The translations under genes were made by a program, and so were the position numbers. 64,000 nucleotides of DNA from assembly GCA_963753315.1 (NCBI GenBank), contig CAVWCI010000015.1, positions 5,518-69,517 on the forward strand. Reading direction: 5' to 3'. Positions 33,675 to 63,141 of this stretch are shown here, one piece after another. Source of the DNA: an uncultured Alphaproteobacteria bacterium. GTDB lineage: Bacteria > Pseudomonadota > Alphaproteobacteria > Geminicoccales > Geminicoccaceae. The stretch's first letter is position 1; each line of letters starts with the position of its first letter. The notes under the pieces were generated by a model. That model made no database searches, was not told where the DNA came from, and worked only from the letters and a program-made list of their open reading frames with translations.

Positions 33675-35138
33675 TCAGCCCGCTGGCGCGAGCCGGTTCG
33701 CGAGGGTCGGTGTGTTCGTCGGGCCTCGCCAGTCTAGTAGCGCTAGCATGATGCGCTCAACGACTGTCTGGAGGCGTTTCTGCTCCTGGACGATGACCGC
33801 AATGGCGACCTCTTCCGCCCCGTGGACCAGCGAATTGCGAATCCTGATGGTACAACGCAGCGCGTCATGACCTCCGATGTCGTCCAGATTGACCTTCAGC
33901 CGCTTCAAATGTTTGTTAAGTCTCTGCCGAAATGCCGGGCGTGCCAGTTCGGAGATCTTTGCGCTGATCACCGAGACAGTCTGAGGATTCTTGCCCATGT
34001 CCGTGAGTTGGCTACGTAAATATTGATCAATAGTGCGCAGTTCTTTGGGGCTTATCACTTCCCAAGGGTATTTAAGGTCAAGCGAACTGACGATTTTCTC
34101 TAGGCAGCTAAAGAGAAGGGTGAATTGTTCGTCTACGGTCGGTGCAGACTGCGCAGCTAAGTATATGAGGATCGGCAATCGAAGTCTCATTCCCTCCAGA
34201 GATCTCTTTTCGTATGCCGTGAAGGCACCGTTTATGAACCGGCGGACATCCCTAGATGGCAGCACGATGTCCTCCCACCGAACCCGCCAATTCGAACTCT
34301 CTCGAGTGTCGCCCCGATACTGTTCGAGTAGCCTACCGTCGGACCATAGGGTCCGCGCATACCAAGTCACATTGGACTTAGAGAGAAAAGAGACGAGAAG
34401 ACACAGAACTTCGGCAACCTCCAGCGCTCGCGCCTCGAAGTTTGAGTCCGTGCGTTCGAGATCGCGATCGGTAAGCGTCAGAGAGAAGGCTTCAGCTTCG
34501 ACAGAGAGGTGCAGCTTTTCGAGGGCACGATATCTATCTTCGTGTGGGGGCAGCAAACGTTCGGCCTCTCGGCGGCCGGCATAGAGAAAATGCGGTTGTG
34601 CAGTGATCGCCAAATCCCCGACTTCAGAGATACGCAGATTGGCACTGCGAAATTCGGTTTTCGTGCTTCCCAAATAAGAGAACGTCCGAATTGCGTCCGA
34701 CATCCAAACGAGCGTTGGCCCCGTCAGAAGCAAAGTCATCTGACGGTTACCCATTCCGCGCTGCCCGTAGTCGCAGTCGATCGTGATATCGTAGGGTTCG
34801 AAGCGGCCGAGGATCTGTTGAATAATTTTGCTTTCGTCATCAGGGTAAATGCGCGCGCTCATTTCTCGAAGCAGAACCTGCCTCGAACGAACCTTCTCGC
34901 GGCCCTGGGCTGCGGAAACACTTTCTAGCTCGCATACAGGTGACTGGTGTGCATGGAAGAAAGAATTAAGTTCAGGCCAGTCAGCGGCTGTTCCGCGAAT
35001 GATGCCGATCGGGGGGTGAGCGTTGAGGGGCGAATAGCGAATGTCGATGGAGAACGGTTTCGTCGTAAGGTCTCCGTCCCGGAACACGCCCGCGAACTCC
35101 AACGATTTCGTGAAAAGGACTGTGTCGACCGCGGACAT
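33675..35138 (-). CDS. orphan 487-aa protein with a C-terminal HEPN-like Rx4H motif (candidate abortive-infection/defence RNase)
   Basis: Intact 487-aa ORF with an ATG start and low GC. The C-terminal region reads ...GGHDALRCTIRIRNSLVHGAEEVAIAVIVQEQKRL..., with RNSLVH at aa 434-439 (33822-33839). I recognise no family in the N-terminal ~400 aa. Confidence 0.75.
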   Translation of the reverse strand: MSAVDTVLFTKSLEFAGVFRDGDLTTKPFSIDIRYSPLNAHPPIGIIRGTAADWPELNSFFHAHQSPVCELESVSAAQGREKVRSRQVLLREMSARIYPDDESKIIQQILGRFEPYDITIDCDYGQRGMGNRQMTLLLTGPTLVWMSDAIRTFSYLGSTKTEFRSANLRISEVGDLAITAQPHFLYAGRREAERLLPPHEDRYRALEKLHLSVEAEAFSLTLTDRDLERTDSNFEARALEVAEVLCLLVSFLSKSNVTWYARTLWSDGRLLEQYRGDTRESSNWRVRWEDIVLPSRDVRRFINGAFTAYEKRSLEGMRLRLPILIYLAAQSAPTVDEQFTLLFSCLEKIVSSLDLKYPWEVISPKELRTIDQYLRSQLTDMGKNPQTVSVISAKISELARPAFRQRLNKHLKRLKVNLDDIGGHDALRCTIRIRNSLVHGAEEVAIAVIVQEQKRLQTVVERIMLALLDWRGPTNTPTLANRLAPAG

Positions 35139-42273: not shown

Positions 42274-45962
<3,689 letters not shown>

Positions 45963-46421
45963 CCTGAAGCGCGATCGGCGCCGGGATCCGAACAGCCGAC
46001 AAGGCGGGGATCGCGCGCCCTAAGGCAGCCGGCGGGCCGCCGTAGGGGCGAGGAAAACAGCCCGGGGGCTGAGCCGATCGGGTAGGGAGGTGTCCCCGGG
46101 GCGGCCGCCGAGCGGCCCTCGGAAGGTCCGCGTCGCTGGCCGCCGCTCGCTCCAGCCCCGAGCCCATGCTACGACGTCAACGGCTCACCTCGTCGTGACC
46201 TGACTTCGGGGAAACGCCAACCTGCTTGCCGCGCGAGAGATCTGGGTGCCGCTAGGGCGGGATTGCACACCCGCCCGTGAGCGGCCATCGATCGGTTTTT
46301 TGGGAACCCTGTTGACCATGATGATGCAGCGATCGCTGCGGTGTATTTGAAAAGGGAGCGCGAAGCGGCAATTGTAGCCGAGCGCGGGGCAAAGGCCCGG
46401 ACAAAATCGGAGCGACGGAAG

Positions 46422-48854
46422 GTGACCCAGGCAAAAGACCTCCTTGCCCAGATGACGTTGGAGGAGAAGGCTGCGCTCTGTTCCGGACGCGACTTTTGGA
46501 ATCTCAAGGGCATCGAGCGCCTGGGTATCCCCTCGATCATGCTCACGGACGGGCCACACGGGCTGCGCAAACAAACGGTCAGCGGCGAGCGGATCGACTT
46601 GAACGCGAGCGTACCGACGACCTGTTTTCCCACGGCAGCGGCGCTCGCCGCCACCTGGAACCGGGATCTGGTCTACCGGGTCGGTGAAGCCCTGGCACAG
46701 GAGTGTCTGGCCGAGAAGGTCGCGATTCTCCTGGGGCCGGGCGCCAACATCAAACGTTCGCCGCTGTGCGGCCGGAACTTCGAGTACTTCTCGGAGGATC
46801 CCTATCTGACCGGCGAAATGGCCAAAGCGCACATCCGGGGCGTGCAAAGCAAAGGCATCGGGACCGCGCTCAAGCACTACGCGGCCAACAATCAGGAAAG
46901 CCGGCGCATGTCGATCGACGCGATCGTCGACGAACGGGCGCTGCGCGAGATCTATCTGACCGGGTTCGAAATCGCGGTGCGCGGAGCTCAGCCGGCCACC
47001 GTCATGTGCGCTTACAACCGGGTGAACGGCACCTATTGCAGCGAACACCGGCGTCTGCTGACCGAAATTCTCAGAGACGAGTGGGGGTTTACCGGAGTGG
47101 TGGTCAGCGACTGGGGCGCGGTCAATCAGCGGGTGAAGGGTCTCGCCGCCGGGTTGGACCTGGAGATGCCAGGCTCGCGCGGCCAGAACGATGCCGTGCT
47201 GGTCAAAGCTGTCGAAGCGGGCGAACTCGACGAGACGGTCTTGGATCGGGCCGTCGAGCGGCTGCTCACGCTCACGCTGCGCTTGAGCGGTGTGCTGAAA
47301 GAGGACGCCTCCTATGATCGGAACGCCCATCACGCGCTGGCCAGGCAGGTGGCCGGGGAGGCCGCCGTGTTGCTGAAGAACGAGGGCAGCATCCTGCCTC
47401 TGGCTGCGGTCGGGCCGATCGCGCTCATCGGGGCGTTCGCCAAGACGCCCCGTTATCAGGGCGCCGGCAGCTCGCAAATCAAGCCGACCAGGCTGGAGAA
47501 CCTCTGCGATGAGCTCGTCAAGCTTGTGGGCCACGAGCAGACTGTCGGTTACGCGGACGGGTACCGCTTGCGGGGCGATACGGTCGACCAAGCGGTGCTG
47601 GGGGAGGCATGCAGCGTCGCCGCGCAGGCGGCCGTCGCGATTGTCTGCGTGGGACTGCCCGACTGTTTCGAGGTCGAGGGCGTCGATCGGGCACACATGC
47701 GTCTGCCGCAAAGCCATGACGCCCTGGTGGAGGCGGTCGCCGGGGTGAATCCCAATGTGGTGGTCGTGCTGAGCAACGGATCACCGGTCGAGATGCCATG
47801 GGAGGACCGGGTCAAAGGCATCCTCGAGGGCTATCTGGGCGGCCAGGCGGGTGGCGGAGCGATCGCTGACATCCTCACCGGCCGGGTCAACCCCAGCGGC
47901 AAGCTTGCCGAGACTTTCCCGCTACATGCGGAAGACAACCCGTCATACGCGAGTTTTCCAGGAGGTCCCAAAACCGTCGAATATCGAGAAAGCGTCTATG
48001 TGGGCTATCGGTACTACGACAGCGCGCAGCGGGCGGTGCGCTTTCCATTCGGCCACGGCCTCAGCTACACCACTTTCCAATATGACGATCTTGCCCTGAG
48101 CGCGGCCCGCATGGGGGACGGCGAGCGTCTGACGGTCGAGGCCACGATCAAGAACACAGGTCCCGTCGCCGGCAAGGAGACGGTTCAGCTCTATGTGCGG
48201 GATGTCGAGGCGAGCGTCTTCAGACCCGACAAAGAGCTGAAGGGATTCCTCAAGATCAGTCTGGAACCTGGCGAGGAACGAAGGGTCAGGTTCGAGCTGG
48301 ACCAGCGGTCATTTGCGTTCTACGACGCAAATCCCGGCGGATGGCGAGTGGAGCCGGGTAAGTTCGAAGTACTGATCGGAGCCTCGTCCAGAGATATTCG
48401 GCTGTCCGGTGCCGTGGAGGTGACATCGACGCGGCAAGTCGTGGTCGATCCGGTGCAGCGGCGCAAACTTCAGTCCTATCATGCGCCTGCCACGAGCTTT
48501 CCTATCGCCCGGCCAGCGTTTGAAGCCCTGTGTGGCAGAACGCTGCCCCGCAACGACCGTGCCAAAGGCGACGAGCATACGCTGAACACACCGATCGGCG
48601 ACATGAGAGATACGATTGCGGGCCGCCTGCTGTATAAAGTGATCCAACGCAAGATCGACAGGATGACAGGAGGAAACGATGACGAGCCCATATCGATCAT
48701 GGTGAAACGCATCGGCGAAGAACTCCCGCTGCGCGGCATGATGATGAGTTCGGCAAAGGTCACTCACGGGATGCTGGATGGTGTGCTGATGATGATCAAC
48801 GGCAGAGCCTGGCGCGGTATGCGCAAGTTACTCACGGAGTTCTGGCACACCTGA
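46422..48854 (+). CDS. glycoside hydrolase family 3 beta-glucosidase
   Basis: Intact ORF 46341..48854. Contains [37 protein letters not shown] and a fibronectin-like C-terminal domain. I prefer the GTG start at 46422 ([16 protein letters not shown]). G+C looks lower than the flanks. Confidence 0.88.
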
Positions 48855-48944
48855 CACAGCATCAGACTTCTATCCAAAATCGTATCCTGAAATCGGTTGG
48901 CGCTGGCCCATTGCAGGGCGCCGCCGCGCATCGGACCGCGCCGG

Positions 48945-54632: not shown

Positions 54633-54884
54633 CGCTCCCCCTCGCTTCGCCGGAGCGTCGTCGCAAGCACCGGGCCTGTCAAGGAAGAGGGGGCAGTGGT
54701 CTAAGGCGTGGAGAGTTCGACGAACGCCACGTTCTGGCGCAAGCCCACCATTTGGACCGGACAGAAGCCATGGCAGCCTTGGTCATGGGCGGGTATTCCT
54801 CACGTCGGTTGTGAACGTCCATCGACGGCACGGAGGCGCGATTTATTCCTGACATGCCTGTTGGACGCGGCTAGAGTGGCAATC

Positions 54885-55778
54885 ATGGACTTTCGCTCAC
54901 TCCTGGCTCGGCACCGCTCAGATCTTGCTCTGGTCATTGGCAATGGTATCAACAGATATGGCTCGGCGCCCAACACGAACTCATGGCACGATCTGTTGGT
55001 AACGCTCGCTAGCAAGTTTATTGGAAAACAAAGTGAAAAAATCCCGGCCGGCATCGCACTCACTGAGTTTTACGATATTCTAGAATTGAAGTCTGGACCG
55101 AGCGTACCTGGGAAATCGCTGCAAAAAGAATTCAGCAATCTGATGCGAGAATGGACGCCGCACGAGCATCATAGGCGGATTGTCTACTGGGCAGCTCAAG
55201 CCCGATGCCCGTTGCTAACCACAAATTTTGAGAATGTCCTCGGCGAAGCCGGTGCGTGCACGTTGCTCCATACCCAACGAGATGGATTTACGGATTACTA
55301 TCCCTGGGAAACCTACTACGGACATGGACCGCTTACTGATCCTAGCGTCGGGTTTGGAATATGGCATATCAATGGGATGGAACGCTATCGACGCAGCATC
55401 CGACTCGGATTAACCCACTATATGGGATCTGTCGAGAGAGCAAGAAGTTGGATTCACAAAGGCAAGGAGAGAAGGCTCTTTTCTGGAAACAGCGCACGCG
55501 AGTGGCGAGGCGCGGGCACTTGGCTACACATAGTTTTTAATAAACCCCTTTTGATCTTTGGCCTCGGTCTTGAAGAAAATGAAATTTTCCTTAGATGGCT
55601 TCTTATAGAGAGAGCAAGATATTTCCGAAAGGTTCCCGAAAGAAAGAAGCAAGCGTGGTATATGCATATTGACGAGATGGCTGGCTCAGGAAAGCTCTTT
55701 TTCCTGGAAGGCGTGGGCGTCAAGCCTATCAGGGCCAGGAGCTACGACGAGCTGTACGGTGTGGCGACCTGGACTTGA
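54885..55778 (+). CDS. standalone SIR2-like (SIR2_2-type) protein, candidate NAD-consuming defence effector
   Basis: Low-GC ORF 54708..55778; the likely ATG is at 54885 (297 aa). Motifs occur in SIR2 order: LALVIGNGIN (Rossmann glycine loop), PLLTTNFENVL (Asn 55224-55226), GIWHINGM (His 55365-55367), PLLIFGLGLEENEIFLRWLL. Confidence 0.7.
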   Translation: MDFRSLLARHRSDLALVIGNGINRYGSAPNTNSWHDLLVTLASKFIGKQSEKIPAGIALTEFYDILELKSGPSVPGKSLQKEFSNLMREWTPHEHHRRIVYWAAQARCPLLTTNFENVLGEAGACTLLHTQRDGFTDYYPWETYYGHGPLTDPSVGFGIWHINGMERYRRSIRLGLTHYMGSVERARSWIHKGKERRLFSGNSAREWRGAGTWLHIVFNKPLLIFGLGLEENEIFLRWLLIERARYFRKVPERKKQAWYMHIDEMAGSGKLFFLEGVGVKPIRARSYDELYGVATWT

Positions 55779-56321
55779 TGGGCCCGCCCAAAAGCACCCC
55801 TGATCGGGACAGGGAGTGCGTCCTCCTCGACGGCGGAGAGCGAGAAGGGTGGCGAACCGCGCCTGAGCCGATCGATCGAGCCCCTCGACTGGAACGCCGG
55901 CGCCCTTTGATCTCGAAGGCACCCTCGACCCCGGCAGCGACCTGCGAAGAGCAGTTCTTGCCCGATCGAAGACCCTTCTCCTGCCGCGACGGCGCCCTGG
56001 CGCATGGTGGTGCAAAAATGCGACGGGTGACGCAAGAATGCGACGGGGTGGCGCATATCACATGCCGCAGCGCACGGTGCGCGTCGCATGCCTTCCCTTC
56101 GCCCGCGCGGTGCGGGACGATCATTCCTGGAGCTCTGATTCGGTTAAACTTGGCACTGCCTGTTGCAGCGCCTCCCCATTGGCGAGGCCTCGTCCGCACC
56201 AGCCTCCCCTTGAACCAACCCGGAAGCCGCCATGCGTCGTCCCGGAGCCGCGTCTGGCGCGGCGTCTTCGAGCATTCCCCGCGCCGCAGGTCGCCACCGC
56301 CGGCGCGCGCGAAAAAAACCA

Positions 56322-56353
56322 ATCGAACCTGAAGCCCGCGGAAATCCTGGCGA
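56322..56353 (+). repeat. copy 1 of an imperfect 32-nt direct repeat in a non-coding stretch
   Basis: ATCGAACCTGAAGCCCGCGGAAATCCTGGCGA matches copy 2 at 28 of 32 positions. Confidence 0.6.
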
Positions 56354-56480
56354 AGTCGCGCCCGCTACGGCCGCGGACGAACCCGGGACCGTCCTTGAGC
56401 TGCGACCTGGAGCCGCCACACGGTATCCGGCGGCCTAGCGACCTGAGTCGCGCCAGAAGCCGGCGCACGGCAGGAATCCG

Positions 56481-56512
56481 ATCGAACCCGAAGCCCGCAG
56501 AAACCCTTGCGA
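56481..56512 (+). repeat. copy 2 of the imperfect 32-nt direct repeat
   Basis: ATCGAACCCGAAGCCCGCAGAAACCCTTGCGA lies 159 nt downstream of copy 1. Confidence 0.6.
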
Positions 56513-56671
56513 GATCAGCTCCGTGACGGCCGCTGGGCCTGCAAACGCTGCAGCGCACCGCCGGGCCGACCAAGCTTGGCGACCGGGCGCCGCTGCAGGA
56601 AGCCGAACGCCACGGGTCCAGGGCACGGGCGGCCCTGGCGCCGCAGCGTCAGGTGGTGTGAGGCCTGGGGA

Positions 56672-61728: not shown

Positions 61729-62683
61729 TCGTACCGCCCGATAAGGCGGTCCGCATCGGTCGTCTGATCGGCTGGGCGGCGGTCGCTGCGTCCTTGGGGT
61801 TCGTGGGGCTGCAGCTTTGGCAGCATGCGCCATGGCGGCTGGCCGGCGCGCATCTGGAAGTCCTGACGGCGGCGATCGTCGGCGGCGCGCTGCTCTACGG
61901 CTCGGCCGGCCTCCTTCTGTCGAGTGCCTGGTACCAGCTGCTGAATACCGGCAGTGGGACGGCATCGCTTCGCTGCCATCACGCCGTCTACGGCCGCACG
62001 CAGATCGCCAAATATCTGCCGGGGAACGTGTTTCACCTGGTCGGCCGCCAGGTCATCGGTCGCCGGCTCGGGCACGGCCAGGGTCGCCTGGCGCTCGCCT
62101 CGCTGCTCGAAGCCCTGCTGCTCGTGCTGGTGGCGGGCGCGCTCAGCCTGCCGCTGGTGTGGCACTGGCTCGATCAGGGGCTGTTGTGGATCGGCGCCCT
62201 GACTGCGCCGGCGCTTGTGCTGATCGCCGTGCGCTGGACCCGCAATCACCGTTCGGCGCTCTGCGACCTCGAGGAAGGCGTTGATCGAGATGCCGATGGG
62301 AGCGGCCCTGCGCCTGCTGCGTGCCGCCGCGCTGTATGCCCTCTTCTTTCTCGTCGTCGCGGCCATCTTCTGGATGCTTGCGCTGAGCGTGAGCGAACTC
62401 GGGCCGGCCCTCGATCGGCTTTGCCGGCAGCATCCCGGTGGTCGCGCTCGCCTGGCTGGTCGGCTTCGTCACACCCGGCTCCTCGGCGGGCATCGGCGTC
62501 CGCGAAGCGGTGCTGATCGCAGCACTGGAGGGCACGCTCGGTGCTCCCGCCAGCGCCTTGATCGCGCTCGCCCTGCGGCTCGTCACCGTCGGCGGCGACG
62601 TTGTGTTCTTCACCCTCGGCGTGATCGTCGGCCTGGCAGGGGGCCGGCCGCAGCCGATCGCGCTTGGTGACGATCCTGCTTGA
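61725..62683 (+). pseudogene. UPF0104/lysyl-PG-synthase-TM-like (flippase-like) membrane protein, frame-disrupted
   Basis: The GTG overlaps the methyltransferase stop. Three frames: ...RTQIAKYLPGNVFHLVGRQVIGRRLG...; ALRLLRAAALYALFFLVVAAIFWMLAL; VALAWLVGFVTPGSSAGIGVREAVLIAAL. Shifts are near 62280 and 62430. Confidence 0.65.
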
Positions 62684-62850
62684 TGCGCGCTGATCCGAAG
62701 CCGCCAATATTGTCAGCGGCACGAATATTTATTGCTTAATCGCCGTTTACTGTACTAGGATAAACAAACGGCAATCCTATTGCTTATGTATTTCTTAAAT
62801 TAGAGAGTTCAATGTCGACCTACCGCGTCAATATCATGGGGGAACGTTCC

Positions 62851-63141
62851 ATGAGCACCATCCGCAAGTTTCTGAAGGACGAGAGCGGCGCGACCGCGAT
62901 CGAGTACGGCCTGATCGCCGCGCTGGTGTCGGTTGCGATCATCGCGACGCTCTCGCTGCTCGGCAACACCTTGAACCAGACGTTCGTGACGGTCGAGAAC
63001 GGCCTCGCGGGCGCCGCTAGCCCCCTGAGCCGCATCGGTTCGCAGGTATCGGCGGCCCCGGCCGCCGATACCTTGACCAAAGCACAGGTTCGCCTCTCCC
63101 GCGGCCAGTCAGGCACGGTTGCCAAGCGGAGGTATCGATGA
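62851..63141 (+). CDS. Flp/Fap-family pilin with an unusually long C-terminal tail
   Basis: MSTIRKFLKDESGATAIEYGLIAALVSVAIIATLSLLGNTL carries the Flp motif G/ATAIEYGLI. As sequenced, the ORF runs on to 97 aa. Confidence 0.75.
   Translation: MSTIRKFLKDESGATAIEYGLIAALVSVAIIATLSLLGNTLNQTFVTVENGLAGAASPLSRIGSQVSAAPAADTLTKAQVRLSRGQSGTVAKRRYR

Follow-up and report, generated by a model that had tools for sequence, protein, structure and literature searches.

The window analysed here, a stretch of 64,000 nucleotides from an uncultured alphaproteobacterium of the Geminicoccaceae (contig CAVWCI010000015.1), carries a SIR2-like gene whose 297-aa product consists of a single SIR2_2 domain of the immune type (‘SIRim’) and has no partner gene. 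We consider it most likely, with moderate confidence, that this protein is a self-contained immune effector that would target NAD+ in abortive infection by means of a remodelled active site. An earlier note, made from the sequence of the window alone, had already pointed to an intact SIR2-like open reading frame (ORF). With 1,543 homologues at E ≤ 1e-3 this ORF is indeed intact and far beyond chance. The best homologue is 75% identical, and nearly all are 290–310 aa long and nearly all are unnamed. The family comprises 692 clusters at 50% identity, with lengths almost all between 290 and 330 aa. It is unannotated: members appear as ‘hypothetical protein’ in RefSeq plasmids, and many are missed by Pfam, NCBIfam and PADLOC.

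The family assignment follows from three lines of evidence. Firstly, 15 of 31 close homologues match PF13289 (SIR2_2) weakly (E ≤ 1), and the gathering score of this profile (24.5 bits) is passed by P0270 (30.9), P0177 (25.9), P0178 (25.3) and P0113 (25.1). The members passing the cut-off are 56% identical to the window protein or more distant, and in P0113 the model begins at the ‘LTTNF’ motif. By itself, the window protein does not match PF13289 at E ≤ 1, and the family reaches this profile through transitive homology; none of the 31 family members matches PF02146 (SIR2). Secondly, a family profile of 64 members down to 30% identity (A4) matched human FAM118B with E = 3.2e-6 and an hhalign probability of 94%, and matched ThsA marginally (E = 0.038) over the span from the G.G loop to TTNYD. 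A profile restricted to close homologues (A1) gave nothing but noise against the PDB, so the broader alignment was needed to reach FAM118B. Thirdly, the AlphaFold2 model (predicted local distance difference test, pLDDT, 81.7; predicted template modelling score, pTM, 0.85) has eight beta-strands, and its top 14 fold matches in the PDB are all SIR2 proteins, with immune-type proteins scoring best (KomC, SPARSA SIR2-APAZ, DSR2, FAM118B and Avs5). The best of these was KomC (8zsi_E; E = 5e-6, TM-score 0.54 on the query and 0.59 on the target), whereas canonical Sir2 (1m2n) was matched with E = 0.034 only. These results bear out the SIR2_2-type fold put forward in the earlier note, and also its statement that the SIR2 domain makes up the whole protein.

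The SIRim clade takes in all known antiphage SIR2 proteins and is recognized by a SIR2-like Rossmann fold with at least seven strands and no Zn-binding Cys tetrad (Bonhomme et al., bioRxiv 10.1101/2024.09.18.613514). The predicted fold of the window protein has eight strands and immune-type SIR2 proteins as its best matches, and since the protein contains only two Cys it has no Zn tetrad. We regard the SIR2_2 assignment as secure, on the basis of modelled fold and transitive homology rather than of a direct profile match.

According to the literature, three motifs are conserved in all SIR2 proteins: G.G, ..N.D and.HG. We drew column statistics for these motifs from 332 family sequences; their positions in the window are listed in Table 1, and all four motifs quoted in the earlier note were found at the residues given there. 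The G.G loop is present yet atypical, as it reads GNGxN and not GAGxS or GTGIS as in other SIR2 proteins, so that its second and fifth residues differ. G19, N20 and G21 are invariant wherever the column is occupied (325–327 of the 332 sequences) and N23 is at least 90% conserved. In the ..N.D motif, Asn occupies position 114 in all 332 sequences, and only Asp or Glu occurs at position 116. Both the HMMER profile and hhalign place N114 on N163 of FAM118B (TTN163FD), mutation of which abolishes activity (PMC12700824). Residues that stay invariant down to 30% identity are G19/N20/G21, T112/N114, G164, G226, E233 and R237. E233 is a candidate equivalent of the Asp of the NADase clade (KomC D194, FAM118B D255).

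The third motif deviates. HMMER and hhalign both aligned ‘W-H161-I-N163-G164’ on ‘L-H204-I-H206-G’ of FAM118B, and the chain numbering was confirmed by counting. Since H206 is the catalytic His of FAM118B, the canonical His position is occupied by N163 in the window protein, which thus has I-N163-G164 in place of.HG. The pair of residues at positions 161 and 163 is His/Asn in 76% of the members, His/His in 11%, and Tyr, Phe, Asn or Asp with Asn in another 11%. The group that combines a residue other than His161 with Asn163 is mostly one Bacteroidota clade (Tannerella, Taibaiella, Mucilaginibacter, Spirosoma, Flavobacteriaceae), while H161 is near-invariant among the close homologues. We found no compensatory covariation between the two columns: H161 is lost equally often with N163 and with H163. 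Judged from these alignments, the catalytic centre is remodelled, with Asn at the canonical His of ‘.HG’ and a His or an aromatic residue two positions earlier, so that the chemistry may not be that of textbook SIR2 NADases.

The gene stands alone not only in the window, as the earlier note had observed, but throughout the family. We compared 80 loci from species-representative genomes with additional metagenomic, plasmid and sister-strain loci (~90 in all), and none of them has an adjacent helicase, pAgo, SLOG, TIR or other partner gene. All-versus-all clustering of the ORFs within 6 kb on either side of 85 loci gave no family-wide neighbour and revealed synteny at genus level only (Cellvibrio, Undibacterium, Burkholderiales). 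The adjacent genes belong to 59 different Pfam families upstream and 83 downstream, and those of the second ring to 83, with no family recurring; no small ORF, antitoxin-like ORF or non-coding flank conserved across genera was found. An apparent small-ORF ‘cluster’ of 11 loci turned out to be an antisense artefact inside the SIR2-like gene. An adjacent paralogue, as in FAM118A/B, was likewise looked for at the homologous loci and not found. A functional tie to the DHDPS-like gene upstream in the window was rejected, as 80 orthologous DHDPS-like loci lack the SIR2-like gene.

In this genome the SIR2-like gene is a recent single-gene insertion. The low-G+C pocket described in the earlier note was confirmed: G+C is 0.497–0.517 across 54800–55800 (400-nt windows) and 0.68–0.74 on either side. 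For the gene itself it is 0.502 compared with 0.706 in the flanks, and this deficit (-0.205) is the largest of 83 homologous loci. Since the pocket is limited to the gene and a short stretch upstream of it, the insertion of foreign composition comprised a single gene. We found no exact empty site of the insertion. The gene is also present in a second strain (L085) at 98% identity, with an intact reading frame. In the family as a whole, gene G+C follows host G+C (r = 0.89), but deficits of more than three points occur in 30 of the 83 loci and excesses in 3, which fits repeated horizontal transfer followed by amelioration. A pattern-limited scan of 185,579 species-representative genomes gave 140 matches (~0.08%), so the family is rare. 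Its members occur in Proteobacteria, Bacteroidota, Acidobacteriota, Actinomycetota, Planctomycetota-like and further lineages. Similarity and taxonomy do not run in parallel: a Bacteroidota copy (60%) resembles the window protein more than the copies of Sphingomonas do (51–54%).

The genomic context is mixed. Eleven independent contexts of the closest homologues were available with annotation. Of these, two are ambiguous, three (including the window) are housekeeping contexts, and six are defence or mobile-element islands. The islands contain a type I restriction-modification system with Kiwa, TacAT and an integrase (L170); a type I restriction-modification system with Abi_C and an OLD nuclease (L176); a BREX/Pgl-like cluster (L172); a prophage in which the gene lies beside the serine recombinase (L171); a transposase/integrase island (L169); and an island with Schlafen and a DUF3427 helicase (L173). 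In the loci from species representatives, PADLOC defence models (HamA/B, SduA, Mrr, TmtA, retron PRTase and PDC candidates among them) recognized at least 14 of the 161 genes directly next to the SIR2-like gene, which is a crude count without a matched control. A figure of ~1.5% of bacterial genes predicted as defence genes is quoted in a review. A BLAST census of defence and mobile-element genes that included a control set gave 4/80 versus 0/80, a method too insensitive to inform. Plasmid copies sit among RelE/ParE, AbiEii, TmtA (Tiamat) and RES toxin genes. Together, this mixed context suggests a role in defence. Many lineages, however, keep the gene in housekeeping synteny.

Some loci hold possible pairings. 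A TmtA (Tiamat) homologue lies directly downstream of the SIR2-like gene on the Agrobacterium plasmid pAtCFBP7129b (L087 8932-13152) and in a second alphaproteobacterial locus (L047 10903-15207), with PADLOC E-values of 2e-280 and 2e-237; one is on the same strand after a 41-nt gap and the other is convergent. This may reflect a shared island or an occasional functional pairing. In an integrative and conjugative element (ICE) of Salmonella Infantis SARB27 (L086 4912-8945), a distant relative (27% identity, 316 aa, a ThsA-like SIR2_2 protein) directly follows an 873-aa helicase-like protein of the candidate defence family PDC-S28. The ICE also has DndE and a DGQHR-domain gene alongside, and the pair may be an uncharacterised two-gene SIR2 system. 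Occasionally the gene is found near a tRNA gene (tRNA-Thr in Burkholderiales, one tRNA-Lys). A tRNA-linked island was nevertheless rejected as a general explanation, as such linkage is only occasional among the loci and absent from the window. In four syntenic loci of Burkholderiales metagenome-assembled genomes (L006-L009), a tRNA-Thr(TGT) lies 0.5, 1.7, 2.4 and 8.8 kb downstream of the gene, and these variable distances indicate that variable cargo was inserted between them, as at an integration hotspot.

If the protein acts as an immune effector, NAD+ would be bound via the GNG loop and the invariant Asn114 of TTN(F/Y)(D/E), and would probably be hydrolysed upon infection. The effector would probably be held inactive in uninfected cells. 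Its probable switch is a change in self-assembly into an oligomer or filament, by analogy with KomC, ThsA, Avs5 and FAM118B; filament formation is a common mode of activation among immune SIR2s (PMC12700824, PMC13454610). As there is no partner, the infection cue would have to be sensed by the SIR2 domain itself. A bolder version of this proposal is possible, and we offer it tentatively. Here the bare 297-residue SIR2 domain would be sensor and effector at once, a minimal single-protein NAD-targeting immune module that travels between phyla as a one-gene cassette. It would carry a natural Asn at the His site, with either a relocated His (H161) or a different chemistry, and would perhaps be kin to FAM118.

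Several observations weigh against an NAD+-targeting immune effector. Firstly, searches of Pfam, PADLOC, NCBIfam and PDB sequences with the window protein alone gave no match, even with E-value cut-offs of 1 to 10. The profile and PADLOC searches proposed in the earlier note thus gave no significant SIR2 profile match and no PADLOC match for the protein itself, which at face value contradicts a SIR2 protein. Secondly, of the 332 sequences 289 (87%) have Asn in the canonical His column (163), 42 have His and one has Gln. The His at 161 had been proposed, together with N114, as the catalytic pair; the Asn half of this claim stands, being invariant and on the catalytic Asn, but H161 lies off the canonical site and is His in 87% of the members, with Tyr or Phe throughout one Bacteroidota clade. 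In 37 of the 332 members (11%) neither position holds a His. A His-to-Ala exchange at the canonical site abolishes the activity of ThsA, FAM118B (PMC12700824) and KomC (PMC13454610), and a His-to-Asn mutant of KomC (H146N) was the construct for cryo-electron microscopy (PDB 9xvc). Thirdly, the window copy, L001 and L175 have housekeeping neighbours only, and housekeeping synteny with host-like G+C is conserved in Cellvibrio (9 loci), Undibacterium (6) and Burkholderiales (4). Plasmids hardly ever carry the family (3 close matches in 72,556), phage records gave no matches, and no viral structural relative was found. Lastly, the proposal offers no mechanism by which a partner-less, constitutively encoded NADase would stay off.

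The active-site substitutions could mean that the protein has the SIR2_2 fold but that its NADase chemistry has changed or been lost. It would then bind NAD+ or a related nucleotide and act as an ADP-ribosyltransferase, another hydrolase or a non-catalytic sensor or scaffold (pseudoenzyme), with an immune role being optional. The Asn at the canonical position and the loss of activity of ThsA, FAM118B and KomC without this His fit such a protein, as does the GNGxN loop in place of GAGxS. Moreover, the exchange of H161 with Tyr and Phe, as seen in the alignment, resembles a stacking role more than that of an indispensable general base, and some members, as stated, have no His at either site. However, N114, the G.G loop, E233/R237 and the pocket-forming motifs are constrained across phyla down to 30% identity, which indicates a functional nucleotide site, and ‘HG’ is restored in 13% of the members without any other change. 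H161 shares a strand with position 163, two residues before it, and according to the modelled secondary structure its side chain could point the same way and substitute for the canonical His. We consider altered or lost NADase chemistry rather unlikely.

It seems unlikely, and a little more so, that the protein is the effector of a sensor or signal encoded elsewhere, for example a small molecule from an unlinked system or a conserved host pathway. Precedents exist, since KomC is inert without KomB and dITP and FAM118B needs FAM118A. The lack of a linked partner in the ~90 loci would be explained, and the very strong conservation over the full length is compatible with a conserved interaction partner. 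On the other hand, defence systems are nearly always co-located for joint transfer, and a gene that moves between phyla as a single unit must work in naive hosts. Nor did any gene recur alongside the family in the loci examined.

A non-immune housekeeping or regulatory NAD-dependent enzyme, deacylase-like or a relative of metabolic sirtuins and patchy by chance, is in our view improbable. It would account for the conserved synteny in Cellvibrio, Undibacterium and Burkholderiales and for the fact that most immediate neighbours are housekeeping genes. It would also fit that the gene, in about one third of the loci, follows an unrelated gene of the same strand at a distance of under 50 nt, and that it is present in both strains of each of three species sampled. 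Yet the gene is found in only ~0.08% of species representatives, the strand number and missing Cys tetrad are those of SIRim proteins, and the fold is much nearer to immune SIR2s than to canonical Sir2. The gene is unlinked to the DHDPS/Tct operon in 80 relatives, has no recurrent metabolic neighbour, and in six of the 11 closest-homologue contexts sits in a defence or mobile-element island. Finally, a selfish, addictive toxin-like gene or a decaying passenger without host benefit is highly improbable: the single-gene insertion of foreign composition without mobility genes nearby and the apparently frameshifted copies at L026 and L073 (C-terminal fragment in a separate ORF; pseudogene or assembly error) would fit it, but the frame is intact, the gene is 98% conserved between strains and under strong purifying constraint across phyla, and no conserved antitoxin-like small ORF lies alongside.

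Among characterised proteins, the window protein is most like KomC and FAM118B, both of which, unlike it, have a partner and the canonical His. Of the solved structures, FAM118B gives the best match at the level of sequence. FAM118B and FAM118A (SIRanc, vertebrate noncanonical sirtuins) are also essentially SIR2_2 domains alone (~300–350 aa), and the ‘VLTTNFD’ Asn motif and the ‘xHIxG’ spacing are common to both families. FAM118B processes NAD weakly and has to form filaments to do so (PMC12700824). In contrast to the window protein it keeps the canonical His (‘HIHG’), identity is ~21%, and it is a eukaryotic protein that works with its paralogue FAM118A, whereas the bacterial family has no adjacent paralogue. 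Based on the profile match, the family may be bacterial kin of the vertebrate FAM118 lineage. KomC of the Kongming system (KomA-KomB-KomC) comes closest in structure and is also a small SIR2-only protein (264–277 aa), a filament-forming NADase (PMC13454610). It is always encoded with, and activated through, KomB (a HAM1-like dITP sensor), has the catalytic His146 and shares only 14–15% sequence identity. HAM1/ITPase-like or deaminase genes were absent from ~260 neighbouring ORFs of the family loci and from the window, so the gene does not belong to a Kongming system.

The other SIR2 systems are more remote. ThsA of Thoeris belongs to the same Pfam family, with the marginal profile match given above, and is a NADase activated by filament assembly. 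However, ThsA carries a SLOG or Macro sensor domain, adjoins the TIR gene ThsB and needs H152 in its ‘HG’; the window protein is a single domain without a PADLOC match to ThsA, and TIR, SLOG and Macro were absent from the neighbour families. DSR1/DSR2, SPARSA SIR2-APAZ, SIR2-HerA and Avs5 SIR2-STAND share the immune-type SIR2 fold (Foldseek E = 1e-4 to 3e-3), and DSR1 and DSR2 are single-gene systems too. In these systems SIR2 is coupled to a C-terminal domain of ~700 aa, pAgo, HerA or STAND, whereas the window family is a bare domain. At 297 aa it lacks the ~1,000-aa length and large C-terminal sensor region of DSR1/DSR2. Neither an extra domain nor HerA, Piwi or APAZ among the neighbour families, as in SIR2-HerA (Nezha) or SPARSA, was found, and none of the PADLOC models for DSR1/2, SPARSA, SIR2-HerA and Avs5 matched the protein. 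Canonical sirtuins (CobB/Sir2Tm/SIRT1-7) share the Rossmann-type NAD-binding fold, the G.G motif and the Asn motif, but the window protein has eight strands instead of six and lacks the Zn-binding Cys tetrad, the HG and a PF02146 match, and its fold match to them is weak. In the searchable literature we found no description of a single-gene SIR2 system of ~300 aa that consists of the domain only; one recent domain-centric screen explicitly left out single-gene systems.

All characterised immune SIR2s are coupled to a trigger, be it a fused sensor (DSR1/2, ThsA, Avs5), a partner (HerA, pAgo, KomB) or a paralogue (FAM118A/B). A widespread SIR2-only family with ~90 partner-less loci raises the question of how a potentially lethal NAD-consuming enzyme would be controlled and triggered without a dedicated sensor. 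The natural His-to-Asn exchange at ‘.HG’, with His/Tyr/Phe variation two residues upstream, offers a test of which residues SIR2 NADase chemistry requires. Another SIR2 defence gene will not surprise the specialist, but a partner-less bare domain with such a site is unusual and directly testable. If the profile affinity to FAM118B reflects phylogeny, the family also bears on the bacterial origin of a vertebrate innate-immunity protein. A dedicated family profile would improve annotation.

Table 1. Features of the SIR2-like locus (positions in the window).
Feature	Position	Strand	Remarks
SIR2-like ORF	54885-55778	+	297 codons plus stop; standalone single-domain SIR2_2 (immune-type SIR2, ‘SIRim’) protein
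Low-G+C pocket	54800-55780		~50% versus ~70%; gene plus ~85 nt upstream, nothing more
Promoter-like site	54849-54877	+	sigma-70-like CTGACA-17-TAGAGT; ends 7 nt before ATG; consensus match only
NAD-binding ‘G.G’ loop	54939-54953	+	codons 19-23, G-N-G-I-N; aligns with ‘GTGIS’ of FAM118B
‘..N.D’ motif	55218-55232	+	codons 112-116, T-T-N-F-E; N114 corresponds to catalytic Asn (FAM118B N163, ThsA N112)
‘.HG’ site	55362-55376	+	codons 160-164, W-H-I-N-G; register relative to FAM118B ‘LHIHG’
SIR2_2 C-terminal motif ‘G-x-[GSA]-x...acidic’	55560-55595	+	codons 226-237, G-L-G-L-E-E-N-E-I-F-L-R; G226, E233 and R237 invariant
Downstream stretch without supported gene	55779-56671		~890 nt, host-like G+C; context, not part of the module

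The ORF caller extended the gene from a GTG at 54708 to 55778 on the forward strand. The internal ATG at 54885, which gives the 297-aa protein, coincides with the conserved N-terminus of 30 aligned homologues; on the sister-strain contig the gene caller also took a longer start (353 aa). No Shine-Dalgarno sequence is visible before the ATG and the transcript may therefore be leaderless. The upstream neighbour on the divergent strand is a gene of the DHDPS family (PF00701, 26.7 bits), the DapA-family gene of the earlier note, and the downstream neighbour on the convergent strand encodes a thiolase. Some family members are longer than the window protein: P0259 (663 aa) has a C-terminal extension with a weak LRR_4 match, and members of ~390–430 aa (P0146, P0157, P0177, P0178, P0186, P0270) have ~100 aa inserted into the variable helical region that follows the first strand. 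These variants may be sensor-bearing forms.

The earlier note had suggested that a sensor or regulator might lie in the adjacent non-coding region. In 55779-56671 we found no ORF with a family match and no Rfam match. Within the stretch lie two direct repeats of 59 nt (56316-56374 and 56475-56533), which are 76% identical at a spacing of 159 nt and translate to ‘PIEPEARxNPGE(I/V)AP’. In the 98%-identical sister strain, 488 nt of the window (56077-56564) are replaced by 1.24 kb, which makes this region a strain indel hotspot. There, a 268-aa ORF (L085 11854-12660) has the same repeats in its C-terminal half and a helical N-terminal domain that is missing from the window, where the repeats are what is left of the ORF; no other family homologue has this ORF beside it. 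Since the stretch is host-like in G+C, strain-variable and unconserved beside homologues, we rejected it as a hidden regulator of the SIR2-like gene.

Other parts of the window also differ between the strains or in composition. A second strain-variable segment comprises 4.4 kb in the window (44522-48912, G+C 0.60–0.65) and 1.5 kb in L085 (2712-4212); read by eye, the window version has genes for a GT2-like glycosyltransferase and for a GH3-like beta-glucosidase of 837 aa. A small low-G+C dip (0.55) at 62600-63000 corresponds to a Flp/Fap pilin gene region that is ~75% identical between the otherwise 98%-identical strains, and the pilin appears to be diversifying. The first low-G+C pocket of the window (0.53 over 34001-35000) holds an orphan ORF of 487 aa (33675-35138, reverse strand) without a Pfam or PADLOC match. 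Situated 20 kb from the SIR2-like gene and unlinked to it, this ORF has an ‘R-N-S-L-V-H’ motif (Rx4H, HEPN-like) near its C-terminus, and may be another single-gene foreign insertion.

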